From: a virus
Strand: one strand, 5' to 3'
UHGV virus genome: UHGV-0363627
DNA: 64,000 nt
Shown: positions 49,308-62,105 of the stretch, piece after piece
Numbering within the stretch: the stretch's first letter is position 1
Layout of the letters: every line of letters starts with the position of its first letter
Notes under the pieces: generated by a model
What the model saw: only the letters and a program-made list of their open reading frames with translations
The model's database searches: none
Told to the model about the DNA's origin: nothing
Position numbers and translations under genes: made by a program

Positions 49308-50678
49308 TTATTCTGAACTACCAAAACTTTGAACATAATATTTTTCATTCTCTGTAATATTTTTTATTTCATGATTTTCATTAATAGGTTTTAGTCTACT
49401 ACAATCATTTTCTTCATTTGTACCTATCATATATAATTTATAGATTTTTATTTTATCAGTATTAAAAGTAAGTTTATTATATCTATATAGAAACTCTTTT
49501 ATATTATAGCAGTTTGGCGACATGAATATAATCGCATTACACGTAATTTCTAGACTGTCTGACGAACAATTTTTAATGGATAATACTCTAATATTGTTTG
49601 AGTTGAAAGATTGCACAGAAAGGCTGGAAATGGCTTGTGCGGCGAAGTTTTTTACTTCTCCTTTTCGATTACCAGTCTTATATCTTATAAAATCTCCAAC
49701 ATTTTCATCATAAACAGGTCTAGCTTCAATATCATTATGAAATTCACCACATGATATATTATTTTTATTAAGAGTTTTATAAACTTCTGTTGCAAGAATA
49801 GTATTCTTACTAACTATTATTACTTTCTTATCTTTTAATTCTCCATTTAATAAATCTATAACTATAGGTATCTTATTTACATTATTATTTACTAAATTAT
49901 TACGTTCACGAAAAATATTATAAGCAGTAGAACATCTTTCTTCTATACTAATAGGATTAAATAAATCATCTATTTGCTTATTAAAAGGTATAGTTACATC
50001 AAGATGTTCATTCCAACCATTATATTGAGCAATAGATAATCTTACAGCTTCAGCAGATTGACCTGTAGTTTTATCTCCTACTCTAGCACGATTTATATTT
50101 TCAAGACTACCAAATATATTAATAGTTTTATTTATATAATCACTATATTTATCATATAATTCTTTTTCATCCTGTCTAGCAAATTGTACTCCAATGTGAA
50201 TTTCCTCTACGGGCAAGCTATATTTAGCTGCATATTTGGCAGCATAATCAGCTTGATTTAATATAGGAAAATATTTATAAAGATAAGCACGAGAATCAGG
50301 ATGAATTTTATCTGTTGTTATAATAAATAGTCCATATTTAATTATACTATTAATATAATTTGCTTGATACATATCAGTTAATCCAACATAAAAAGCTATA
50401 TCATAATTATAATGTACACCTATTTTTACATAAACAGAAGTAATACAAGCATAATTATTAGAACTTACATTGTTTTCTTTTAAATAATTCACAATACTAG
50501 TTCTAACATCATAATCTTTAACTACAATAAGAGCTTTTATATTTGGATTTTTCTCTATACTTCTTTTCATTATATATTCTATTAGTATAGCAGGATTATA
50601 AGGTTCAAGAAGTATACAACAACCTTTACATTTATTTTCTCTCCATTTATTTGCTATATCAATATATGTTTTATTCAT
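49308..50678 (-). CDS. hypothetical replication-block protein (456 aa); C-terminal part crosses an anomalous GC-rich segment (49520-49680)
   Basis: ORF that contains a repeat copy (SLPVEE). Confidence 0.45.
   Translation of the reverse strand: MNKTYIDIANKWRENKCKGCCILLEPYNPAILIEYIMKRSIEKNPNIKALIVVKDYDVRTSIVNYLKENNVSSNNYACITSVYVKIGVHYNYDIAFYVGLTDMYQANYINSIIKYGLFIITTDKIHPDSRAYLYKYFPILNQADYAAKYAAKYSLPVEEIHIGVQFARQDEKELYDKYSDYINKTINIFGSLENINRARVGDKTTGQSAEAVRLSIAQYNGWNEHLDVTIPFNKQIDDLFNPISIEERCSTAYNIFRERNNLVNNNVNKIPIVIDLLNGELKDKKVIIVSKNTILATEVYKTLNKNNISCGEFHNDIEARPVYDENVGDFIRYKTGNRKGEVKNFAAQAISSLSVQSFNSNNIRVLSIKNCSSDSLEITCNAIIFMSPNCYNIKEFLYRYNKLTFNTDKIKIYKLYMIGTNEENDCSRLKPINENHEIKNITENEKYYVQSFGSSE
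50204..50220 (+). repeat. 21-bp repeat copy 20, in CDS 49308..50678 (SLPVEE)
   Basis: Direct read. Confidence 0.7.
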
Positions 50679-51690
50679 CTACATCATCAAATAAAGTATT
50701 GTACATTCCACTAAATTTACGAATTTTACTCTTTCCTTTACCTTTAGGAGTAATACCTAACTTAATCGGGTCTATTAATTTCATACATTCATTATAATAA
50801 TATTTAAAATCAATATTTCTTAAACTAATATCAGTATCATCTAAAGTATTTACAACACAAACTTTAACTCCAGCTGCCATTCTTGACCTACTATTAGTAA
50901 TATTATGAACTTTTTCTATTGTATATCCATCATTACTAATATAAAATCTAACATATCGCTGACAAACTATTTTTGTAAGTATTCCATTAACAACTTTTGT
51001 TTCTTCAACATGAAATTGTCTACCAACATTTTGAGTCATACAAAAATCAAGAATATTAGTAGCTTTTTGAAGAGTTTCCATTATAGGAACTTTATTAATG
51101 AAATATTCATAAACAGCTTTAGCAACAATAGGTTTATCATATCCTTTTTGTAAGTCAATACGATACATATCTGGGTTCATTGCTCCTTTAAATTCTGTCT
51201 TTAACTTTCTAACTTCTTTCTTTTCTTCTCTAAATAAGGCTAAATAATTATTTACATTGCTAGCTATAAGACAATGAAGAATATCACTATCTGCTTCCAT
51301 TTTAGTTTTTTGTTGCCATCTAGTTGTTATATCATTAAACAATGCTTTATCTTTTTCATAAACTTTTACCATAATACCATCTGTATTAGCAGATATAATA
51401 TGTATATTATTAAGTTCAAGTTCTTCACAAAGCATAAGCATCATTAATTGACCATTTATAGTAACTCGAAGAGTAGCAAGTCTATCATAAAGTGGACTAT
51501 TTTCATCTCCAAATTTACCATATATACTATTAATGACAATTTTTAATACAAGTGCAAGCACATCTTTAGGAATACCATCAATTATAGCTTCTTCGCTATG
51601 CTTAACAGTAACACGAGTATCTTTCATCCATTGTATTAGATTACGAAATGCACTCTCAATCATATGAGCAGGAGCAACACTATATGCAGC
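50671..51690 (-). CDS. family B DNA polymerase, exon 2 (C-terminal part)
   Basis: KIVINSIYGKFG matches motif B (K-x3-NS-x-YG), and ISANTDGIMV matches motif C. The junction AAYSVAP continues motif A begun in exon 1. Confidence 0.6.
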   Translation of the reverse strand, partial: AAYSVAPAHMIESAFRNLIQWMKDTRVTVKHSEEAIIDGIPKDVLALVLKIVINSIYGKFGDENSPLYDRLATLRVTINGQLMMLMLCEELELNNIHIISANTDGIMVKVYEKDKALFNDITTRWQQKTKMEADSDILHCLIASNVNNYLALFREEKKEVRKLKTEFKGAMNPDMYRIDLQKGYDKPIVAKAVYEYFINKVPIMETLQKATNILDFCMTQNVGRQFHVEETKVVNGILTKIVCQRYVRFYISNDGYTIEKVHNITNSRSRMAAGVKVCVVNTLDDTDISLRNIDFKYYYNECMKLIDPIKLGITPKGKGKSKIRKFSGMYNTLFDDVDE

Positions 51691-52032
51691 CATAATACTA
51701 GGATAATACGACGCGCATTAACATCATAGCTTTCACTATGAACCTGACTATATCTTAATCTTATAACAAGATTTCTCGCACTTCCACATTTATTAATAAT
51801 GTGTACTCCTTTCGGATAGTCGATGAACTTTACTATTATTATATTTCACAATATAATGAGTAGTCTTAGCTGCTGATTGTCCATTATTACGATACTTAGG
51901 AATATTATTCCATATATCATCTGTTATTTCTTTTCTACTTTCGTAACTATTGCCATTTAGATTTTCATCTTCTGTTTTAGTAATAACAGCTTTAGGAGTT
52001 TCCAGCAATTCACGAGATTACGACACTGCGTC
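51691..52032 (-). mobile_element. group I self-splicing intron (ORF-less, ~342 nt) interrupting DNA polymerase motif A
   Basis: On the minus strand: P AATTGCTGGAAAC (top 51998-52010), Q AATCAGCAGC (51869-51879), R GTTCATCGACTATCC (51814-51828), S AAGATATAGTC (51747-51757). Exon 1 ends in U (..agt) and the intron ends in G of ..attatg. Splice coordinates are approximate. Confidence 0.6.
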
Positions 52033-53301
52033 ACTTATGTCAAAATGATAAATTGTAAAAGCATTATCTCTTTGTAGCTTGCCCGTAGAGGAATTGCTAG
52101 ATATATCCCATTCAGTAGTACTCCATATTTCCATTGGTCTATCTTTACTATGAAGTCCACCTGTAGCTAGAGTATAATTAACATCACCAATAATAACTTC
52201 TTTCTCAAAAGCATCTTTGCTAACTCTATATAATGTAGTCTTTTTTATTTCTTTAAGTAGTTCTTGTAACTGTGGAGTTTTAAATTCAACACAATCAAAT
52301 ATAATCTTACCTAAATTCATAGCAGTTCTTTTAGTTCTTCCATCTTTCCATTTCTCATATGGAATACCACTATATTTAGTATAAAACTTTTGAAATAAAA
52401 CATTAGCCATATTACTACGACTACTATTAAGAACATCTACTTTATAAGAAGCAGAAACAGCATATCGAGATTTAATTTCATTAGGATTAAGACGAACAAT
52501 TTCACAAACAATAAATACATCATTTTTATTATAATGCATCATATCTGGAATATATTCATCTATTATATATCTATCCCATTTATCAATTACATTGGTGAGC
52601 TTTTTATAATCATAACCTTTATATCTTGTATCTTTTGCATAATAGTGATAATCTTTATCACATATATCAGGTAATTCGTATTCAAGAAGTTCATACCATT
52701 GTAGATTTATACTAGTTTGTTTTAAGCCTTTTGGAATATATTTCTTTTCTCCAGTTTTACTATCAACAATAGTTCCAGCTTTATTCAAAGCAAACACTTT
52801 CATTACATCTACACCTTTAAACGGCAATGGATATTTTCTTAAACTTCTTAATAGAAAATCATTTTTAGCACCATCTTTATTATCTTGTAATTCAATTATC
52901 TTTTTTGATGTTTCATAAAGCCTTGTAATAAGTTCTTTTGTAGTATCTGTTTGACCAAAATACATTAATAAAGCAGCAATCATAAGATTATCATAGCTTT
53001 GACTATTATAACCATATAAATCACTACGAGGATAAAGTTCATTAGCTTTAAATCCATTAATATATTCAACCATTGAGAATAATTGACTATCATCTGTATC
53101 TGTAATATAAAATTGTTTACATTTTACAACATCAAGTCTTTGTAATAATTCTTTAACAGATATTTTTTGAACAATAGGAATTGCTTTTCCTTTACTATCT
53201 ACAACATCTTTAAAAGTATCAAGATAACTAGCTAAATCAATAAATGTTATCGAAAAAAAGTTAGGAAGTACTTCCACATCATAACATTCTATTCTTATCA
53301 T
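52033..53301 (-). CDS. family B DNA polymerase, exon 1 (exonuclease domain to start of motif A)
   Basis: YDVEV matches Exo I, YNSQSYDNLMI Exo II and YNKNDVF Exo III. It ends ..YHFDIS at motif A (D-x-x-S-x-Y..), completed by exon 2. Confidence 0.6.
52075..52095 (-). repeat. 21-bp repeat copy 21, in polB exon 1 (SSTGKL), 43 nt from the intron junction
   Basis: TAGCTTGCCCGTAGAGGAATtg. Confidence 0.7.
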
Positions 53302-53828
53302 ACATATCTTCTCATATTATAATATTTTATAGCATTAACAAAATCTGTTTTTATAGCTTTCTTTACCTCAGCTTCATTATATTTATCAAATGAAAACTTT
53401 ATATTGTAAAAACAATATTTTCCATAATTGATAATCTTATTAGAACAACCATTAGGAAAAATAGTACGAGTACTATTAATCACAATCATATATCTATAAG
53501 GAACTCTCATAAGTTCTTCATTCAATATATTGCGACAATTACTCATACTATTCTCATAAAGTTTGTATGAACAATTATAAGTAGAACATTTAATATTATA
53601 CGTAATGTAACATTGTTCAAGCATATTTCGTCCTGTATATTCAAGCCAAATAGCTTTTAAATCTTCTAATAATTTATTACGAAAATTCTTATTACCATAC
53701 ATAGGTAAAAGAATAACAATATCAGAAGTTATACATCCTATGCCAATATCAATAGTACGACCAATATTAAACATTCTATTTATACAATACTGACAATGAA
53801 TACAAGTATCAACAGTCATATAAAACAT
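53298..53828 (-). CDS. Cys-rich protein (176 aa) upstream of the polymerase, possibly UDG-family-4-like
   Basis: CIHCQYC cysteine cluster. Its position, fused or adjacent to polB, is common in crAss-like phages. This call is weak. Confidence 0.25.
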   Translation of the reverse strand: MFYMTVDTCIHCQYCINRMFNIGRTIDIGIGCITSDIVILLPMYGNKNFRNKLLEDLKAIWLEYTGRNMLEQCYITYNIKCSTYNCSYKLYENSMSNCRNILNEELMRVPYRYMIVINSTRTIFPNGCSNKIINYGKYCFYNIKFSFDKYNEAEVKKAIKTDFVNAIKYYNMRRYV

Positions 53829-54067
53829 TATAATGATAATAATTTATCTACAATATAAAGTTCACCGCACCATAAATAATTATAACTTTCAATCATAGGA
53901 GAATTAATTCTAATATCATCATAACTATTAACAATATCCCAACCTGTATTGTTATATCTGCCTATTATTATATCATTTTCTGATATACCAACAATCATAA
54001 CTTCTTCATCCGATTCATTTTTATAAGTTTTACCGAGATGTTTCTTTATAAATTCTTCAGCCGTCAT
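53828..54067 (-). CDS. small protein, tandem paralogue A (79 aa)
   Basis: EEFIKKHLGKTY..MIVGIS..IIIGRYN aligns with the neighbour's IEFVKNNLGKECH..MIVGYRN..VIIGFYN. Confidence 0.45.
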   Translation of the reverse strand: MTAEEFIKKHLGKTYKNESDEEVMIVGISENDIIIGRYNNTGWDIVNSYDDIRINSPMIESYNYLWCGELYIVDKLLSL

Positions 54068-54312
54068 AATATTTTAATATTTGATGGTCTCACATAATAA
54101 TAAGTTTTAAACATAGCAGATTGAATAATAAATTTATCACCTTCATAATTATCATTATAAGGGTCAGTCATCCATCTGTCTGTGACATAATTATAAAATC
54201 CTATAATAACATATTCAGTATTGCGATAACCAACAATCATTCCTTTATCTGCAAATTCATTTATATGACATTCTTTACCAAGATTATTTTTTACAAATTC
54301 TATATTATCCAT
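54064..54312 (-). CDS. small protein, tandem paralogue B (82 aa)
   Basis: See paralogue A. Confidence 0.45.
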   Translation of the reverse strand: MDNIEFVKNNLGKECHINEFADKGMIVGYRNTEYVIIGFYNYVTDRWMTDPYNDNYEGDKFIIQSAMFKTYYYVRPSNIKIL

Positions 54313-55261
54313 AACATATATACAATTTATTCTTACATCTACTACAAGCTACATACAATCGTCTTAACAAATCATCTACATTACTATAAGCATTACCATT
54401 TTTATCATAACACATATCATTTATATCAACAAATACATTATCATAAGTACTACCTTGGCTTCGATGACTTGTTAAAGCAAATCCATAATCTATATCTCTT
54501 GAAATAATAATCTTACCTGTATAATCAACTACATTTTCAAGCAAAAGATACTTTCTCTTAAACTCATAATATTTCTTCCAACAACTAGAACGAGTTTTAA
54601 TATCAGCATTTTTTGCTTTATTAATAAGATAATTTACCTCATCACAATATGTTTTCAATGTATAAGCATCAAAATGATTTATAACAAATAAAGGCTTAGT
54701 AACAGCTCCACCATGTATAGCTTGAAACCTTATCATAAAACCTTTAAAATTATAAGTTTCATCTTCATAATTAACTATGTCTTTAATAATATATTCTTCA
54801 CTATTATTAATAATAATATCATTAAAATCATCAACAATAGTTGTATAAGACATTATCAAATCATTTCTATTAATTATAGTCTTATCAGCATTTCGAACAA
54901 TAGTTTGACGAATAACTTTATTCCAATAAGATACAGCATTATTAGTATATGCTACCATACGATACAAATCAACATTTGTTGCAAAATTTTCATCAGAAAA
55001 TCTATTCATAACAACATTTGTAAATTCTTGTCGATTATATACTTTATATCCAACATCACCATTTATATTTTCTCTGTTTTTATAAATATAACTAAGAAAA
55101 TTAAATGTTCTATGTTTTATATCATCACGTAGCATTGCCAACAATTCAGTAACAGGATTATCTTTTTCTTGTCGTACAATTTCTTTAAGTTCGCTAGTCT
55201 TATAAGCATTTTTAAAAGCAGTACTAACTTTCTCATTTACAGGACTAAGCTGATTTGCATC
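54305..55261 (-). CDS. Dda/RecD-like SF1 helicase, exon 2 (begins DANQLSPV, motif III)
   Basis: Exon 1 ..KVLYIG joins exon 2 DANQLSPV to make LYIGDANQLSPV (motif III GD-x-x-QL-x-PV). Downstream, YGFALTSHRSQGSTYDNVFV and LYVACSR match motifs V/VI. Confidence 0.6.
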   Translation of the reverse strand, partial: DANQLSPVNEKVSTAFKNAYKTSELKEIVRQEKDNPVTELLAMLRDDIKHRTFNFLSYIYKNRENINGDVGYKVYNRQEFTNVVMNRFSDENFATNVDLYRMVAYTNNAVSYWNKVIRQTIVRNADKTIINRNDLIMSYTTIVDDFNDIIINNSEEYIIKDIVNYEDETYNFKGFMIRFQAIHGGAVTKPLFVINHFDAYTLKTYCDEVNYLINKAKNADIKTRSSCWKKYYEFKRKYLLLENVVDYTGKIIISRDIDYGFALTSHRSQGSTYDNVFVDINDMCYDKNGNAYSNVDDLLRRLYVACSRCKNKLYICYG

Positions 55262-56485
55262 CAATAATCTTATAACTTTCATTATAAGCCTGACTATATC
55301 TTAGTTGCATTATCAATATCTATATAAGGTAAAAATTGTTCTTTATATTTTTTATCAAGTTTAAAAAAATCAACAAAAACATATCCTTTATGACTCTTTT
55401 TTGTACCGTTTATAACTTGACTGACATTTTTAGGTGTAAAGCCATTATCTCTAAGGTCTTGTGAACCATAAAATATTCTAAATTCATGTTCATCATTATT
55501 TGTTATAGCTAAAGAAATACCAATATAAATTCTATTATTAGTTTTACCTGGCATATATTCATAATTTTTATCAGTATCATAATTATTTTTATAAATCCAT
55601 TGATAGCCTTTATGAATATTTCTTTTTCCTGAACAACAATCAGCTATACATCCAGCGTAAAAATGCCCAATTTCTTCCGCTTCTGTAGCTGATGCCCATT
55701 CTTTAACAATATTACCTAAAATATCTATTTGTAAAACAGGTTTTGAATTAGGATTAAGTTCATATTTATTTCCATAATTACCATTTTCTTTACCAATAAA
55801 ATGTTTGTTATAAAAATAATTTTCATTTCCTTTTTTCCCAATACAAGTATCACCTTCATTTCCATTAACTAAACAACCACCATTTTCAATACATTTGTAT
55901 TTAGCTATTAATTCTTTTTCTATAGTTATACTATCTTCAATAGATATATCTATTTTATTTATAACTACTTTAACTTTAGAAACATCTTTAACTTTATTTT
56001 TCCAAAGATTATTTCTATTATTAAAATTAAATGCTCTACTAATAGTACCTTGACCTACATAAAATGGTAGTTCTTCATCATTATAATAATGAAGATAAAC
56101 ACAAATTCTTTCTAAATCTTTAAAAGAATAATCATACTTACTAGGAATATCTTTAACGCTATTAATATTCCTTTTCTTTTTGTTAATTGTAAAATTAAAT
56201 GTAACCATATATTTATAATTTAAAAGTTCATTACAAATATATGGCGAAAATTGATAATTTGCAACTTTCTCCGTTTCGATTTTTAAAAAATCTACTCCCT
56301 TTCGGGATAGTCGATGAACTTTGTTCATTTCATAATTCACATTATTACTTAGAACCTTAGCTGCTGATTGTCATATATTATTAGTTTTTCAAGCATTCAC
56401 ACTTAGATTTTCATCTTATGTTGTAGCACTAATAACTTCACGAGTTTCCAGCAATTAGAAGAATTTTATATCGGCAATGCTATTC
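55262..56485 (-). mobile_element. group I self-splicing intron (~1.2 kb) with embedded GIY-YIG homing endonuclease, interrupting helicase motif III
   Basis: Minus-strand P AATTGCTGGAAAC (top 56444-56456), Q AATCAGCAGC (56360-56370), R GTTCATCGACTATCC (56304-56319), S AAGATATAGTC (55292-55302). The 5' splice site follows U (..atcggt) and the intron ends ..attattG. Its blocks are near-identical to the polB intron. Confidence 0.65.
55294..56340 (-). CDS. GIY-YIG homing endonuclease (I-TevI-like) with two NUMOD/IENR-type DNA-binding repeats
   Basis: ICVYLHYYNDEELPFYVGQG is a GIY...YIG motif. SKPVLQIDILGNIVKEWASATEAEEIG...GKRNIHKGYQWIYKN is one NUMOD-like module and PKNVSQVINGTKKSHKGYVFVDF a second. 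The ORF fills the intron between R and S (P8 loop). Confidence 0.65.
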   Translation of the reverse strand: MNYEMNKVHRLSRKGVDFLKIETEKVANYQFSPYICNELLNYKYMVTFNFTINKKKRNINSVKDIPSKYDYSFKDLERICVYLHYYNDEELPFYVGQGTISRAFNFNNRNNLWKNKVKDVSKVKVVINKIDISIEDSITIEKELIAKYKCIENGGCLVNGNEGDTCIGKKGNENYFYNKHFIGKENGNYGNKYELNPNSKPVLQIDILGNIVKEWASATEAEEIGHFYAGCIADCCSGKRNIHKGYQWIYKNNYDTDKNYEYMPGKTNNRIYIGISLAITNNDEHEFRIFYGSQDLRDNGFTPKNVSQVINGTKKSHKGYVFVDFFKLDKKYKEQFLPYIDIDNATKI

Positions 56486-56968
56486 ACCGATGTAAAGAAC
56501 TTTAATTTTTCTATCAGCGCAATATTTATTAATATAAGTAACTAATGCTTTATTAAGCATACTAGCTTCATCAACAATAAGAACTTTTACATTAGCAACT
56601 TTAGGCGGACCAATAGGTTTAAAAGCAGGCAAATTAGGGTCAAAATCTTCAATATTAGTATCAATTCTAAACCCAAAAGCAGCTTGTATAGTAGTTACTT
56701 TTCTACCTCCTGTAGCATTAGACAATATACGACAAGCTTTATGTGTTGGAGCAGCAAGATAAAACATACTTGAACCATATTTACTATGCTCAATTATATA
56801 ATTTGTAACAAAAGTTTTACCACACCCTGCTGCGCCAGATAATGCTTGAACATTTTTAAGTTTATTAAAATCTTCAGCTATAAAACTTATTATATTATCG
56901 ACAGCTTTTTCTTGACTAGGAGTAAAATTAGGTTTAATAGCTTTTTGGTCTAAACTAATCATATTCAA
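56486..56968 (-). CDS. Dda/RecD-like SF1 helicase, exon 1 (Walker A to motif II)
   Basis: GAAGCGKTF matches Walker A and LIVDEASML matches motif II. The ORF ends at a stop 2 codons into the intron. Confidence 0.6.
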
Positions 56969-57377
56969 AAAATACTTCTTTTATTGTATCTATATCTATA
57001 TCATTTAATAATGTATCATGATAAACTTTAGTTATAGCACATATTCTTTTATTATTAATAAAACAAATATTAGCTTTAACTTTTAACCCAATAGCAATAC
57101 TAGTATAATGTTTTGTTCCAACATCAACCGTATCTTCACCATTACGAATTATCTTTATTCTATGACCATTTTCATCTAATCTTCGAGTATAAATAATTCG
57201 TTTTCCTTTAGTAGAAATACTATTTTCATCAATATCATATAAAACATCATTTGCTTTTAACTTATATTCGTTATTAACAATAGCGATGACACCTTCAATA
57301 GTTTCTACTACATTTGTCTTAGGTTTACTTTTCTCTTTTTTCTTAATAGCAGATAAAGAGAAATTAAAAGTTACCAT
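56955..57377 (-). CDS. hypothetical protein (140 aa)
   Basis: ORF. Confidence 0.45.
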   Translation of the reverse strand: MVTFNFSLSAIKKKEKSKPKTNVVETIEGVIAIVNNEYKLKANDVLYDIDENSISTKGKRIIYTRRLDENGHRIKIIRNGEDTVDVGTKHYTSIAIGLKVKANICFINNKRICAITKVYHDTLLNDIDIDTIKEVFFEYD

Positions 57378-57381
57378 AACA

Positions 57382-57672
57382 TTATCTCTTATATTGTTTC
57401 TTACTATTAGTCATTATAGCTTGTTTCATAGTACGTTTGTTTTCCGTTCTATCCTCTACGGGCAAGCTATCCTGAACTTCAACCACTTCATCATTTGTCA
57501 TAATTCTTGTATATCCTTTATAATTACATAAGTAATCAATTTTTCCAGATATAGAATTACTCATTCTCACACCTTTACTAATTCTAACAGTTTTGTCATT
57601 AGTTACAATTTTAATTCCATTAATTGCTTTCAGTGCTTTGATAACACTTACTTCATCATAATTTTTTGCCAT
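57382..57672 (-). CDS. hypothetical protein (96 aa); contains a repeat copy in frame (SLPVED)
   Basis: ORF. Confidence 0.45.
   Translation of the reverse strand: MAKNYDEVSVIKALKAINGIKIVTNDKTVRISKGVRMSNSISGKIDYLCNYKGYTRIMTNDEVVEVQDSLPVEDRTENKRTMKQAIMTNSKKQYKR
57453..57468 (+). repeat. 21-bp repeat copy 22, in CDS 57382..57672 (SLPVED)
   Basis: Direct read. Confidence 0.7.
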
Positions 57673-57746
57673 ACTTTACATAAGTTTTAAATTAAACAAT
57701 AATATTAATAAAAGCAGAAGCAACACTAGTTACTTCTGCTACAAAA

Positions 57747-57765
57747 TCTCCCCCGTAGAGGAATG
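57747..57765 (-). repeat. 21-bp repeat copy 23, variant (TCTCCCCCGTAGAGGAATG), intergenic
   Basis: Direct read. Confidence 0.55.
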
Positions 57766-57770
57766 TTAGA

Positions 57771-58067
57771 CTAATCAACCAACTCTAGTCCTAACATCTC
57801 TGCAACAACATTATACTGTTCTTTTTCAAAATCTTCATCTTCTTCATAATGTTCAGCATCTTTAATAAATTCTTCATAACATTCTTTACAAAATGCCATA
57901 TTAAGAACAGCTATAAAATATATAATCTCATTATCATCTTCAATAAGTTTATTACATTGGTCACAAATAAGTTTATTACCATAACCAAACTTACATTTAT
58001 TTCTTGCTTCATCTAAAGTCAATTCTATAATAAGAAATCCTTTTTCATTTTCTATCTTTTTTACCAT
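57771..58067 (-). CDS. small Cys-containing protein (98 aa; CDQC...CKEC zinc-binding-like)
   Basis: ORF. Confidence 0.45.
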   Translation of the reverse strand: MVKKIENEKGFLIIELTLDEARNKCKFGYGNKLICDQCNKLIEDDNEIIYFIAVLNMAFCKECYEEFIKDAEHYEEDEDFEKEQYNVVAEMLGLELVD

Positions 58068-58584
58068 AAACTAAATTATTAAATTCTTCAACACTAACAG
58101 TTTTATCCCAATCAATTCCACCATGCTTATCAATTATTTGTTGAGCAACATCAATAGGTAATAAACCAACAGTAGTAGTAACATCTTCAGGACATTCTGC
58201 ATATACTTTAAGAAGTTCTTCATCTTGATTAGGAAAACCAAATTCAACAGTTTCCATAGTATGACCTAAAGTTCTATAACCATTTTCAGAAGAACAATAA
58301 TTACCATTATGTATTTGTAGACTTATACTAAACCCATCATTGCAAACAACACGAGGACAAAAGAACCAAGTATTATTATAAGTCATATTATCACCATAAT
58401 ACTTATTATACATCATAATAGTAACACCTTTTTGAAATATAGACATTTGTATTAGTCTAAAGAAATGTATTAATTTCATATTATTTATCTTTAAATTGTT
58501 CACCAAACATTTGTTCAAAATCTTCTTTAGGACAAAGCATGATTCCGTTATTAGGAATAGCAACAGCTTCTTTTTTAATAGCAA
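58045..58584 (-). CDS. hypothetical protein; true start probably internal (MMYNKYYG.. near 58416)
   Basis: The N-terminal 55 codons overlap 58481..58828 in another frame and look non-protein-like. Confidence 0.4.
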   Translation of the reverse strand: MLLKKKLLLFLITESCFVLKKILNKCLVNNLKINNMKLIHFFRLIQMSIFQKGVTIMMYNKYYGDNMTYNNTWFFCPRVVCNDGFSISLQIHNGNYCSSENGYRTLGHTMETVEFGFPNQDEELLKVYAECPEDVTTTVGLLPIDVAQQIIDKHGGIDWDKTVSVEEFNNLVYGKKDRK

Positions 58585-58828
58585 CTAATCTTCCTGTTCT
58601 ATATGGATTTGCTTCTTGTTTTTCAACTTCAATGATAAATACGCCACCATCATCAATAACTTTTTGACAATCAGGACATATACTACCATCTACTATTTCT
58701 CTAGGTGCTTGAGTATCTCCTTTAAGTCTACCAAACAAAGCAATACTATGATGTTTACCACAAATAAAACATTTAATCATACTTGGATTAAGACCATGAT
58801 TTTTACTAAGTGTTATATTTTTACTCAT
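58481..58828 (-). CDS. zinc-finger protein (115 aa; CFICGKHH...CPDC)
   Basis: ORF with 2 CxxC pairs. Confidence 0.45.
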   Translation of the reverse strand: MSKNITLSKNHGLNPSMIKCFICGKHHSIALFGRLKGDTQAPREIVDGSICPDCQKVIDDGGVFIIEVEKQEANPYRTGRLVAIKKEAVAIPNNGIMLCPKEDFEQMFGEQFKDK

Positions 58829-59022
58829 ACTTCAAATATTATAGTAGCTCTATCAGCATTATAATTCAACTCTTTTATTCTCTCAATAATCATATCGCGA
58901 TAATCATTTTTCAAAACATGACAATCATCAGCAAGTTCTATCACACGTTCTAATTCTTCTATATCATTAGCTGCAACAAGAAGAACATTATTAGATTTAT
59001 TAGTACATTTAAAACATTTCAT
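58825..59022 (-). CDS. small protein (65 aa)
   Basis: ORF preceded by the conserved AAAGTCCGTCAGA motif about 60 nt upstream. Confidence 0.4.
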   Translation of the reverse strand: MKCFKCTNKSNNVLLVAANDIEELERVIELADDCHVLKNDYRDMIIERIKELNYNADRATIIFEV

Positions 59023-59078
59023 ATCAATTATTTATTTCTATATTATATAAAAATTCAGAATGAGCCATTTATTTGACA

Positions 59079-59091
59079 TCTGACGGACTTT
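59079..59091 (-). promoter_or_regulatory. conserved motif AAAGTCCGTCAGA (copy C, minus orientation) upstream of 58825..59022
   Basis: Top strand tctgacggacttt. Confidence 0.4.
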
Positions 59092-59160
59092 CTCACAAAA
59101 GTAATACAAATTATCACGATTGATATAAAAGTCTATCAGAAGTCAAAAGAAGTGGCAAAT

Positions 59161-59388
59161 TTAGGCTGTAGCGGTCAATAAGTATTCAGGAATCGCATGA
59201 TACTGGGAATGACCACATCGAATATCATAGTATATTGCATCAGTGTTATTATCATAAATAACATTAGCAATAACAACTTCACGTTGATTAGCCTTACAAT
59301 GAACAGTTTCTCCTTTATGAAATTTAGCATATTTGCTAATAAGACTATCAACCATAACATCAGTTAAAAGGCTTGCAATAGTATCCAT
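59161..59388 (-). CDS. small protein (75 aa)
   Basis: ORF. Confidence 0.4.
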   Translation of the reverse strand: MDTIASLLTDVMVDSLISKYAKFHKGETVHCKANQREVVIANVIYDNNTDAIYYDIRCGHSQYHAIPEYLLTATA

Positions 59389-59565
59389 AGTTATTTCTTT
59401 TTTACTAAATAATCATTATCTTTTTTATTTTTAGAATGAATACAACGAATCTTACAATATTCACAAGGTAAAATTTTTCCATTATGTTCTTCTAATATAA
59501 CAAAATTATATTTACAGTAATCTCCTTCTTTTACCATAATCAATATATTTAAATTAAACAATAAT

Positions 59566-59597
59566 CAAATAAAAAACCAGTACTATCTTCACAGACA
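59566..59597 (-). terminator. hairpin with conserved loop (family member 2) + T-run: rho-independent terminator for minus-strand transcription
   Basis: Stem aaccagta/tactggtt with loop ctatcttcacagacaa. On the minus strand it is followed by ttttttat. Confidence 0.45.
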
Positions 59598-59702
59598 ATA
59601 CTGGTTACTAAAATAATTAACACAATGTATTTATGCAGTTGTAATAACTCCAAGACTATTATAAATAGTTTAGACTTCATTTATCTCATCAGTTGGAGTG
59701 CA

Positions 59703-59732
59703 ACTACTCCTACTTTCACAAGCAAGAGTAGT
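59703..59732 (-). ncRNA. hairpin with conserved 16-nt loop (family member 3)
   Basis: Stem actactc/gagtagt with loop ctactttcacaagcaa, identical to the loop at 35147-35162. No in-frame ATG covers it. Confidence 0.35.
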
Positions 59733-59765
59733 CTGTTTACTATGAAATTGCAGTTAAACATATAA

Positions 59766-60215
59766 TTATTTTTCAGATTTTCTTTTTTTTACAACAGCTT
59801 CAAGAATATCAGTCGGAATATCTTTAAATTTATCCATTAATTCATTAATATTATTATCAGCAATTTTATTAAATTCGCTTATGCTAACATTAATATTATG
59901 ACATAAAGACTTATTAATTTTTACAATAGTATTAATAGCATCATTGACAACGCAATTAACATATTCAATTTCATCTTTTGTCATATCTTTAGCTATTGTA
60001 GCTTGCCCGTAGAGGATTGACAGCAAATAAGCATAACTTAATGGACATTCTTGAGCTTTAACAACAGCTTCAAGAAAACCAGTTCTATCTTCATCATACT
60101 TTTTACAAAAATCTTCAATCCAAGCAATAGCATCTAAAAACTTTTCTTTATTAGTTTTAGCTATAACATCTTGCCCGTAGGGAATGTCAATCATAACAAC
60201 TTTCTTCATATTCAT
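59766..60215 (-). CDS. hypothetical protein (149 aa) carrying two direct copies of the 21-bp repeat in frame (LYGQA, PYGQD)
   Basis: ORF. Confidence 0.45.
   Translation of the reverse strand: MNMKKVVMIDIPYGQDVIAKTNKEKFLDAIAWIEDFCKKYDEDRTGFLEAVVKAQECPLSYAYLLSILYGQATIAKDMTKDEIEYVNCVVNDAINTIVKINKSLCHNINVSISEFNKIADNNINELMDKFKDIPTDILEAVVKKRKSEK
59999..60019 (-). repeat. 21-bp repeat copy 24, in CDS 59766..60215 (LYGQA)
   Basis: TAGCTTGCCCGTAGAGGAtTG. Confidence 0.7.
60169..60186 (-). repeat. 21-bp repeat copy 25, same CDS (PYGQD)
   Basis: TCTTGCCCGTAGGGAATG. Confidence 0.65.
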
Positions 60216-60363
60216 TTTATTTAATTATTAAAACCAAATGCATTATCTTCACTAACATAATCTTCATAAAGACTACCAACTTCTATTTCTGATATATCTT
60301 TATTAACAACATCAGAATCAATACTAATAGTATTTTCTTCTTTATCAACAGTTTCTACATATT

Positions 60364-60591
60364 CTATAGCCATAAATCAATATATTTAATAATACCACTT
60401 ATAGTAGCAAAAATTACAACAACGCTAATAACAAATGTTATAATATCAAATAGCTTAACACCTCGACCATATCGAATATCAGATACAATACAACATATAA
60501 CAAATACACTTATAATAAGCATAACTAGAATAGCAACAATAAGTGCACTTAATACAAAGAGATTTATTATATAAGTCATATTATTTGGCAT
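60364..60591 (-). CDS. small two-TM membrane protein (75 aa)
   Basis: Two hydrophobic segments (LFVLSALIVAILVMLIISVFVICCIV; ITFVISVVVIFATISGII). Confidence 0.45.
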   Translation of the reverse strand: MPNNMTYIINLFVLSALIVAILVMLIISVFVICCIVSDIRYGRGVKLFDIITFVISVVVIFATISGIIKYIDLWL

Positions 60592-60908
60592 TAATCCTCT
60601 ACGGGCAAGCTACGATTGACTTCTTTAGCAACAAATTCATCTAATAAAGCAGCAGTTCTATTACTAAATTCATCAAAAGCAGCAGTAAAACATTCAAGAA
60701 ATTGTTTATTACTATAACGATATTCTCGTTTAAGTCCATCTTTAATAATAATAAATCTATCTGCCAATAGAGATACATTTGCATCTTCACCAAAACATCT
60801 TTTCAGATATTCAATAGTAACACCTCTAACATTAGCATTATTTCTAACAACATTAGACAAAGCTAATACATGAGCTGGAGTTTCAGGTTTTTCTTTTTTC
60901 TGTTTCAT
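60591..60908 (-). CDS. hypothetical protein (105 aa); C-terminal SLPVED-stop encoded by a repeat copy
   Basis: ORF. Confidence 0.45.
   Translation of the reverse strand: MKQKKEKPETPAHVLALSNVVRNNANVRGVTIEYLKRCFGEDANVSLLADRFIIIKDGLKREYRYSNKQFLECFTAAFDEFSNRTAALLDEFVAKEVNRSLPVED
60596..60611 (+). repeat. 21-bp repeat copy 26, spanning the stop of 60591..60908 and start of 60364..60591 (SLPVED-stop)
   Basis: Direct read. Confidence 0.7.
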
Positions 60909-61208
60909 AACTAATTAATTTAAAAGATTTACAACTACAAATATAATAATATTCTCACATATAACAATTATTATTACAATTATTATTTACAGCAATATAG
61001 TATATTATTATAACAGATGATGTTATAACTATTGCTACAAATAAAGAAACCGCATAAGCTGTAACAAATGAAACAACTGTATGCGGTTATAAAAATAAAT
61101 ATAATTGATATGGAAAATGTAATGTCAAGAGAGTTATTATTGAAAGTCTTATAGATAAATCAACAAAGGTAATAAACGAATAATAAATGGTATCATAATA
61201 AAGATAAT

Positions 61209-61268
61209 AAAGGACTAATAAAAGGTATAACAAAAGGTATAGCAAAAGATATAGCAAAAGATATAGCA
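61209..61268. repeat. tandem 12-bp repeat array (AAAGRTATARCA x5), iteron-like
   Basis: The five units are aaaggactaata, aaaggtataaca, aaaggtatagca, aaagatatagca and aaagatatagca, in a 620-bp non-coding region. Confidence 0.55.
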
Positions 61269-61532
61269 AATGAAGATATTGAAGATGAGATTATAACTAA
61301 AAGTTATAGGCATATAACGAAAAGTTATAATGATGATGCAAGAGTAATTCGAGCAGAAGATATAATAACAATTAGAATAATGAGAGTTAGAGTTGTAAGA
61401 GAAGCAATTAGAGTAAGAATAATAGTAGTAAGAATTATAGCAGCAAGATATAGAAGTTTATTAGGAAGAGGATTAGGAAGTGGAGCAGTAGGAATAGCTC
61501 CAGGTACTCATGCTCATTCTCCTCTTCTATTA

Positions 61533-62105
61533 TTAATCAGCTTTAATTTTACCACTAGCTGTTATTAATTTATCTAAATCTTTTTCTTTATACATATCAT
61601 TATAATCTTGTATAAATTCTTCTCTTTTACCATAAAATAGTTCATTATGATTAATAACAACTTTATGAATATCGGTTGTAAGACGAATTATATTATCTCT
61701 TTGCAATTTATAAAGTGCATCTCTAACAAATCTCGTATTTTTACAAATATGTTCATAATCATTTTTATTAATGACAATAACATTACTGTTCCATTTAAGA
61801 TTTCTAATAAGAACTTTAATAGTTTTATGAACATATTTATCAGCTGCATCATCTATATCATTCAATCTATCACTAATTTGTTTATATGATACACCTATAG
61901 GTTTAGATTCTATACCTCTTAATAGTCTATGACCAAATTGTATATCTTGTTCGACATCTTTATAATTATATTGAACATTAAAAGGAGTAGGGAGTATAGT
62001 ATTTGAACTATTAACAATAGAATTAATATATCTACTTTCTGTATTAGCAAGAGCAATTTTATTAGCTTTAGTAAGTTTTTTAGTATCGAATTTGAATGTT
62101 GGCAT
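61533..62105 (-). CDS. hypothetical protein, paralogue family member 2 (190 aa)
   Basis: LIRNLKWNSNVIVINKND...ELFYGKREEFIQDYNDMYKEKD aligns with IARNIKYNSNVIVISDDD...YILYGRYDEFMRHYKKLYENKD of 62406..62996. Confidence 0.55.
   Translation of the reverse strand: MPTFKFDTKKLTKANKIALANTESRYINSIVNSSNTILPTPFNVQYNYKDVEQDIQFGHRLLRGIESKPIGVSYKQISDRLNDIDDAADKYVHKTIKVLIRNLKWNSNVIVINKNDYEHICKNTRFVRDALYKLQRDNIIRLTTDIHKVVINHNELFYGKREEFIQDYNDMYKEKDLDKLITASGKIKAD

Follow-up and report, generated by a model that had tools for sequence, protein, structure and literature searches.

A probable deletion derivative of a mobile group I intron in motif A of the polB gene of a crAss-like phage

The window analysed here, a 64,000-nt stretch of the virus genome UHGV-0363627 with a G+C content of 27%, belongs to a crAss-like, Crudevirinae-like phage lying nearest to the alpha-group Crudevirinae; among GenBank entries it is most closely related to cr110_1 (Delmidovirus, Crudevirinae), cr11_1 and Carjivirus communis. 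One segment matches the Crassvirales replication module, with all its genes on the minus strand in the order Dda-like helicase, uracil-DNA glycosylase, family B DNA polymerase (polB), SWI2/SNF2 ATPase and RecT. The polB gene of this module appears as two open reading frames (ORFs), one at 52018–53301 terminating with YHFDISDAVS and a stop codon, the other at 50671–51693 opening with MAAYSVAPAHM. A preliminary description of the window, made from the sequence alone, had proposed that a group I intron lacking an ORF interrupts the polymerase motif A between them. The present analysis, which included a covariance-model scan, supports that proposal through a match to the RF00028 family, the restoration of motif A on splicing, and covariation. 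The exon boundaries were located by tblastn and MAFFT against the intronless polB genes of cr110_1 and Carjivirus, and gave the following arrangement (in exon and protein sequences, a slash marks the splice or insertion point):

52037–53301, minus strand: polB exon 1, codons 1–421 plus the first two nt of Ile422, with the 3′ end CAT TTT GAC AT.
51716–52036, minus strand: group I intron without endonuclease gene, 321 nt, recognized by RF00028, P1/P10 and motif A restoration.
50671–51715, minus strand: polB exon 2, beginning C GCG TCG TAT TAT CCT AGT ATT ATG, which encodes (I)ASYYPSIM, and including the stop codon.
51716, minus strand: terminal guanosine (omega G), the last intron nt, kept in nine of the nine introns extracted at the motif A site.
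52022–52041, minus strand: P1, formed by exon GACAU (52041–52037) and internal guide GUGUC (52026–52022), enclosing a 10-nt loop; the pair at the 5′ splice site is U·G.
52028–52032, minus strand: P10 guide GACGC, pairing with exon 2 GCGUC (51714–51710).

The insertion point lies between the second and third nt of the codon that follows the catalytic Asp of motif A. Splicing after U52037 and after G51716 yields HFDIASYYPSIMAAY; the predicted ligated junction is TTTGACAT joined to CGCGTCG or, in a longer form, CATTTTGACAT joined to CGCGTCGTATTATCC. The resulting motif, DIASYYPS (D-I/A-S-Y-Y-P-S), has the canonical DxxS(L/Y)YPS form, and the spliced motif A segment, HFDIASYYPSIMA, is identical to that of the uninterrupted cr110_1 polymerase. 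Around the junction the spliced window protein reads IYHFDIASYYPSIMAAYSVAPAHM and the intronless cr110_1 PolB ILHFDIASYYPSIMAYYGVAPKHM. The residues IASYYPS (Ile422–Ser428) are present in neither polB ORF, being encoded only across the splice, while the frame of exon 1 runs into a stop codon 19 nt inside the intron. With the exons joined in frame the product has 769 aa; it matches Pfam PF00136 (DNA_pol_B) with 24.6 bits (cutoff 23) and is 73% identical over 761 aa to the intronless cr110_1 PolB and 62% identical to that of Carjivirus. The insert had earlier been delimited as 51691–52032, which misses its 5′ end by 4 nt and its 3′ end by 25 nt. The end of the first polB ORF around YHFDIS and the start of the second at AAYSVAPAHM exist as described then, but these ORF ends are not the splice junctions; the motif that they would form, D-I-S-A-A-Y, leaves a seven-residue gap relative to cr110_1, and the megablast match to intronless crAss polB extends to about position 51709 of the window, past 51693. 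That polB is one gene and not two was upheld by its uninterrupted state in cr110_1, Carjivirus communis and 13 of 22 IMG/VR relatives.

A local Rfam scan of positions 51400–52300 (901 nt) detected RF00028 on the minus strand with 50.9 bits (E 7.7e-12, model positions 1–253). The preliminary description had also reported four sequence blocks (P, Q, R and S) common to this insert and to an insert in the Dda-like helicase gene. All four are exact and lie on the minus strand alone, and the two inserts share their order. The start positions in the polB and the helicase insert are 52010 and 56456 for P (AATTGCTGGAAAC), 51879 and 56370 for Q (CAATCAGCAGC), 51828 and 56319 for R (GTTCATCGACTATCC), and 51756 and 55302 for S (AAGATATAGTC). 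Two 15-mers, allowed up to two mismatches, each matched twice, against 0.03–0.08 matches expected by chance. When IMG/VR was scanned for the exact pattern Q...R, 22 loci were recovered, most of them on contigs of 50–140 kb that also encode a crAss-type helicase and polymerase, and GenBank matches were added. Loci are given here as L-numbers, where L005 is IMGVR_UViG_3300045988_110116 (88.7 kb), L003 is NC_055874.1 (cr3_1) and L029 is OQ198719. An nhmmer profile of the family, used in place of a custom covariance model, for which the alignment length would exceed the calibration limit, matched the polB intron of the window at E 7.8e-68. P1 and P10 were placed by analogy with the helicase intron, where P1 is AUCGGU with GCCGAU and a 10-nt loop, and P10 is GAUGC with GCAUU. 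The other elements of the structure are as follows:

52011–52017, minus strand: P3 5′ strand UCUCGUG, with its partner UGCGAGA at 51780–51774; six of the seven pairs change on both sides.
51871–52007, minus strand: P4–P5 domain; P4 pairs UGCUGG (52007–52002) with UCAGCA (51876–51871), the P and Q blocks, and P5/P5a and a distal extension lie between.
51890–51934, minus strand: 45-nt insertion in the distal P5 arm, found only in the clade of the window, L005 and L016, with a hairpin of its own in the minimum free energy (MFE) fold.
51827–51870, minus strand: P6, P6a and P6b; the P6 closing pair occurs in four types (CG, UA, AU, GC) and all four P6a pairs are double-changed.
51816–51821, minus strand: P7 5′ strand GACUAU (R block), with its partner AUAGUC at 51751–51746 (S block); would form a pseudoknot with P3 and bind the guanosine.
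51785–51816, minus strand: P7.1 (UCC-GAAA-GGA) and P7.2 (CACAUU with AAUGUG), peripheral helices typical of subgroup IA.
51757–51773, minus strand: P8, a minimal hairpin AAUCUU-GUUAU-AAGAUU (6 bp, 5-nt loop), the apparent scar of a 757-nt endonuclease-block deletion.
51724–51741, minus strand: P9 hairpin UCAUAGU-GAAA-GCUAUGA; seven of seven pairs change on both sides, and a U·G pair becomes C-G in L005.
51793–52008, minus strand: 71-codon ORF within the ribozyme core, opening with TTG and regarded as spurious.

Covariation was assessed in 14 distinct members from four insertion sites, with the endonuclease-bearing P8 loops trimmed to a tetraloop before alignment and pairs counted on the structure drawn from the window sequence. 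Standard pairing was found in 93.8% of cells, compared with 35–51% when partners were slid by one to three columns, and changes on both sides occurred in 22 of the 51 pairs. The covariation score was 0.364 against a shuffled mean of 0.141, and none of 500 shuffles reached it. P7.2 and P8 were too variable for MAFFT and were compared by anchored extraction with a positional constraint: P7.2 varies in sequence by lineage yet always pairs, and the P8 stem differs among lineages while being fully paired in each. P7.1 was 88% paired, and P7 (GACUAU with AUAGUC) pairs perfectly but is invariant across the 14 sequences. An unconstrained MFE fold of the 321 nt recovered P4, P5, P6, P7.1, P7.2 and P9 (z = −2.6). 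The insertion in the distal P5 arm contains a hairpin, GGAAU-AAU-AUUCC, as well as AAAUAACAG, which is able to pair with CUGUUAUU as an alternative to the conserved P5a pairing of the family. The P4-to-P7 distance is 182 nt with this insertion and 137 nt in all other members with both anchors (128 nt in the divergent L009). By its helices, with P7.1 and P7.2 but no P2, the intron falls among the phage IA-type, IA2-like introns. The 71-aa ORF was considered as a degenerate endonuclease or maturase and rejected, given its TTG start, its overlap with P3–P7, the absence of any Pfam or PHROG match and its lack of conservation; neither the L016 intron, which is 96.5% identical, nor the L002-type introns have it. 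Since it is the sole ORF of at least 60 aa, the intron encodes no recognizable homing endonuclease.

Nine introns were extracted at the identical polB nucleotide, and in all of them splicing restores D[IV][AS]S[YF]YPSI[MI]; L047 would make a tenth motif A intron, with L046 and L047 mapped by tblastn only to aa 423. A peptide-seeded scan of IMG/VR for close polB relatives found 22, of which eight have a motif A insert and 13 are uninterrupted; the remaining one, L044, is uninterrupted at motif A and has an insert near aa 493. The guide helices vary along with the exons. P1 is GACAU with GUGUC in one lineage and GACGU with GCGUC in L002-type introns, a compensatory change from A-U to G-C, and a C-G pair becomes U-A in L018. 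P10, at 5 bp in the window and 6 bp in L005 and L002, is UGCGUC with GACGCA in L005 and GUCGUC with GACGAU in L002, with two compensatory positions. Position +1 of exon 2 (51715) is C in the window (ATC, Ile) and T in L005 and L016 (ATT). Intronless alleles read GAT AT/T GCT TCA, the cr110_1-type site being TTTGATAT/TGCTTCATATTATCC, whereas intron-bearing alleles read GAC AT followed by C or T GCG TCG, or GAC GT/G TCG TCT. These synonymous differences in the exon flanks coincide with the bases that build P1 and P10, the pattern that would be expected from co-conversion during homing plus selection for splicing.

The preliminary description had left open whether the intron lost its endonuclease or never had one; comparison with its relatives answers this in favour of loss. 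Locus L005 is 99.2–99.3% identical to the window over positions 49656–55243, a segment of about 5.6 kb from polB to helicase, where one endonuclease deletion is the only difference named, with one intron gain or loss at the upstream edge. The L005 polB intron has 1078 nt: its first 273 nt are 100% identical to the window intron, and it holds 757 extra nt. This block, in the P8 loop, contains an ORF of 232–243 codons with matches to Pfam GIY-YIG (PF01541, E 2.5e-9) and to PHROG homing endonucleases. In L016, a more distant relative (polB 92–96% aa identity), the intron has 353 nt; the ORF is gone, and about 26 nt of its 5′ flank and 20 nt of its 3′ flank are left. L010 is an ORF-less form (279 nt) of the L002-type intron. 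Because a near-identical sibling carries the gene in P8 and L016 keeps only its flanks, the parsimonious reading of these alignments is that the endonuclease was lost by deletion, more than once. The opposite polarity, with an ancestral ORF-less form and a GIY-YIG gene gained in L005 by insertion into P8, would follow the collaborative homing route, which is accepted as one way for mobile introns to arise (reviews: PMC3984707, PMC2988022). It would suit the clean P8 hairpin of the window, which has no recognizable ORF remnant, and a deletion junction that requires one further substitution (TAAGATT versus CAAGATT). This polarity is nonetheless improbable. L016, with both non-coding flanks and no ORF, has the appearance of a deletion intermediate, and the 273 identical nt in genomes 99.2–99.3% identical point to a recent change, for which a 757-nt deletion is simpler. 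In addition, the GIY-YIG proteins of three motif A intron lineages are homologous at the same P8 position and 54–56% identical to each other, so the gene would predate the divergence of these lineages.

The motif A insert is thus very likely a group I intron, a deletion derivative of a mobile one, in the catalytic motif A of polB. Its group I identity by model score, its exact junctions, its conserved and covarying helices, the polymorphism of the site and the deletion of the endonuclease are direct observations. In the proposed mechanism the polB transcript would fold into P1–P10, and free guanosine bound at P7 would attack after U52037, held in P1 by its U·G pair with the internal guide. P10 would then align exon 2 for attack by the exon 1 3′-OH after the terminal G51716, and the joined exons would encode a single 769-aa polymerase with an intact DIASYYPS. 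The ancestor would have been a mobile intron with a 232–243-aa GIY-YIG homing endonuclease in its P8 loop, of which only the P8 hairpin is left. The window intron, having no enzyme of its own, should be unable to home by itself. Its persistence could be explained by the fact that only precise loss restores polB and that its presence splits the target site of the enzyme, and it might spread in trans on co-infection with an enzyme-encoding sibling strain. Splicing activity, immunity to cleavage and trans mobilization are attributed to the window intron by analogy with known group I and GIY-YIG homing (PMC3984707, PMC2988022).

A decayed, non-splicing relic would leave PolB as two reassembling polypeptides (427 and 340 aa), a situation known from certain T4-related Aeromonas phages, whose gp43 is split. 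In its favour, each half is a long ORF, the second opens with ATG, and split PolB genes do exist in T4-related phages (PMC2988022). The two ORFs would, however, be without the I-A-S-Y-Y-P-S of motif A, and splicing appears to be needed because that motif is encoded only across the junction. All the core helices are moreover intact with P8 neatly resealed, the copy with the endonuclease has the same 5′ 273 nt, and the synonymous bases that P1 and P10 require are present in the exon flanks, all of which makes a relic very unlikely. Some other intervening element (an intein, a group II intron or a translational bypass) would fit the status of the conserved PolB motifs as classic intein sites (PMC549080), but is hardly credible given the in-frame stop 19 nt into the insert, the lack of a protein-domain match and of Hint-domain or group II domain V signatures in it, and RF00028 as the sole Rfam match on either strand.

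Several observations weigh against the interpretation as a splicing group I intron. The RF00028 score exceeds the gathering score of 50 by a narrow margin (0.9 bits), and Rfam scans of the whole window, whether at the gathering threshold or at E ≤ 0.001, recover neither the polB nor the helicase intron. This miss is a filter effect and not proof of absence, because local scans detect both. P4 and P7 are invariant in the sample and so give no evidence from covariation; P2 is absent, with only 4 nt between P1 and P3; and the distal P5 arm can be drawn in two ways, as UUAUUAC with GUAAUAA or as CUGUUAUU with AAAUAACAG (the MFE fold), an ambiguity in the structure. With C at position +1 of exon 2, P10 of the window has a C·A mismatch in place of the U-A pair of L005 and L016. 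The subgroup was assigned from helix content rather than from subgroup-specific models, and splicing of the window intron is a prediction.

The insert in the helicase gene is a second member of the family:

55262–56485, minus strand: sister intron in motif III (YIG/DANQLSPV) of the Dda-like helicase gene, matching RF00028 with 47.6 bits (5′ part) and 21.4 bits (3′ part).
55294–56340, minus strand: endonuclease ORF of the helicase intron, 348 codons, located in P8, where it splits the RF00028 match.

The two introns of the window had been called nearly identical, which holds for the P, Q, R and S blocks only: they are 74.7% identical over 154 positions of the P3–P7 core and 63% over the trimmed alignment, and the helicase intron is closer to L002-type polB introns (87–88%) than to the polB intron of the window. 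Its enzyme had been assigned to the GIY-YIG type. Pfam gave no such call even at E ≤ 1 and found only an I-HmuI NUMOD-like domain, but a profile of seven helicase-intron-type ORFs aligned with the canonical GIY-YIG profile at 97.7% hhalign probability, including VY..(10)..Y[IV]G, so the assignment stands in the form of a divergent relative. The motif CVYxHYYNxExxPFY[IV]GQG is common to the homologues found at helicase aa 161 and at polB aa 493; a search of PDB profiles with the helicase-intron ORF was uninformative. It is plausible, from these alignments, that the ORF represents a divergent GIY-YIG lineage missed by current Pfam. As a candidate for the cognate enzyme of the polB site it was rejected, being of a different, divergent lineage with only a C-terminal stretch in common: in BLASTP, 55 C-terminal residues (a DNA-binding stretch) align with the polB-site enzyme at 31% identity. 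Because its lineage differs from that of the cognate polB-intron enzyme, the helicase enzyme is unlikely to cleave polB.

L005 lacks the helicase intron. The exon flanks of this site are TACATCGGT/GATGCAAATCAGCTTAGT in the window (GDANQLSPV) and TATATTGGT/GATTCATCACAACTTGCC in L005 (GDSSQLAPV; L005 6325–6385), a sharp difference that resembles a tract co-converted when the intron arrived. The two genomes are 99.2–99.3% identical downstream of the helicase intron and 95.4% identical upstream of it (window 56484–61657 versus L005 6362–11500), and this drop suggests that the intron lies at a boundary of genetic exchange between two strains.

In crAss-like replication genes, the mapped sites of the ribozyme family number at least five, and probably six or more:

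polB: motif A, and near aa 493 (L008, L017, L023, L026, L044).
Helicase: motif III (window), and aa 430 (L006, L022, L036).
Rudgehvirus jaberico, OQ198719 2470–3348 (L029): a helicase gene downstream of polB, at the position of the SNF2-like ATPase of the window.

The Rudgehvirus jaberico record annotates a DNA helicase, a GIY endonuclease and a DNA helicase in succession, with no intron feature. L009 and L013 have two family copies each, in further genes. In cr3_1 (L003), polB is split near aa 577–594 by a gene annotated as homing endonuclease, with no Rfam match at E ≤ 0.01. This split (NC_055874.1 3334–4340) was considered as a member of the same family and discarded, as the nhmmer profile does not match it; a free-standing nuclease gene that inserted there, or an intron of another family, may account for it. 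A joint Rfam scan of L002 and L003 at E ≤ 0.01 gave no match, and a local rescan of L002 recovered its split intron.

Outside the crAss-like phages, window positions 51865–52019 (P3–P6) are 77% identical over 155 nt to Clostridium botulinum phages c-st (AP008983.1 103095–103249) and D-1873 (ACSJ01000013.1), the 5′ core is 70–76% identical to introns of many Staphylococcus phages, and the family profile matches c-st at E 1.6e-22. These matches of the 5′ core suggest a ribozyme lineage common to phages of Firmicutes and Bacteroidota. A broader proposal, put forward tentatively and with confidence somewhat short of even, is that one lineage colonized these replication sites by rewriting only the P1/P10 guide and swapping endonuclease cassettes in P8; that gains and losses are fast enough to differ between genomes about 99% identical, marking recombination boundaries; and that the endonuclease-less polB copy is an immunity allele against the nuclease of its sibling. 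Were this the case, intron retargeting and the homing cycle would have a natural study system in the alpha-group crAss phages, which have been described as lacking mobile elements.

This kind of element is well known. Phage polymerase genes with group I introns have been on record since SPO1, and deletion derivatives have been reported from Streptococcus thermophilus phages (references in PMC11878797). The phage group has not previously been described as carrying an endonuclease-less group I intron, and literature searches turned up no account of an intron in an alpha-group crAss-like phage. The window and L005 together capture the homing cycle in compact form, from invasion through decay of the endonuclease to persistence; the principle is not new. 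For annotation, gene callers give polB as two ORFs, with the motif A residues in neither; the GenBank records of relatives (cr3_1, Rudgehvirus jaberico) likewise contain "DNA polymerase (x2)" or "DNA helicase (x2)", separated by a nuclease and lacking any intron feature. For detection, ORF-less introns are invisible to searches for endonuclease domains (PMC7886860) and were missed by standard whole-window Rfam scans, so the frequency of introns in gut phages is probably underestimated. Routine RNA-family annotation of AT-rich phage genomes may under-call them, local scans of about 1 kb having been needed here. Rudgehvirus jaberico, cultured on Bacteroides cellulosilyticus, carries the family, so its splicing and homing are directly testable.

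Among known systems, the T4 introns of td, nrdB and nrdD (sunY), which belong to phage subgroup IA2, with I-TevI, likewise combine a phage DNA-metabolism gene, an IA-type core with P7.1 and P7.2 and a cognate GIY-YIG enzyme. The S block AAGAUAUAGUC is probably shared with td, and nrdB is not known to have a P2. The endonucleases of T4 sit in P6 or P9.1, whereas that of the motif A intron family is in the P8 loop; the host gene here is the family B polymerase of a Bacteroides-type phage, and this copy has no enzyme. The T4 introns also lie in codons for functionally critical residues and show exon co-conversion (PMC2988022). Group I introns have been described in the DNA polymerase genes of SPO1, Bastille/Bastillevirinae, T7-like phages and cyanophage Pf-WMP3 (PMC11878797, PMC3428280). 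Those are likewise IA-type introns of a replicative polymerase, often with a nuclease in a loop and polymorphic between related phages, but their enzymes are of the HNH nicking type, while the present case involves motif A of a family B polymerase and a GIY-YIG lineage. The SPO1, Bastille, T7-like and Pf-WMP3 polymerases belong to family A. In the lysin gene of S. thermophilus phages, a group I intron reportedly circulates together with shortened derivatives lacking the ORF (a study of 2000, cited in PMC11878797); the gene, the host phylum and the endonuclease type all differ from those seen here.

Within the same virus order, Yutin et al. (2021) described introns in the crAss-like Delta and Zeta groups, with PolB among the intron-bearing core genes, and found the alpha-gamma group to lack mobile-element insertions; the introns were found via endonuclease domains (PMC7886860). 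The present intron is ORF-less and comes from an alpha-group-like phage, and that approach would not detect it because it has no ORF. Inteins occupy three conserved sites of archaeal and giant-virus PolB (PMC549080). They too are selfish elements in the most conserved segments of the active site, but splice at the protein level. One of the three sites presumably lies in motif A. The nearest DNA matches outside the crAss-like phages are the introns of c-st and D-1873, for which a "Group I catalytic intron" is annotated in the c-st/D-1873 record, and those of Staphylococcus Twort-like phages and Kayvirus; these differ in residing in other genes of Firmicutes phages and in aligning only over the 5′ core.

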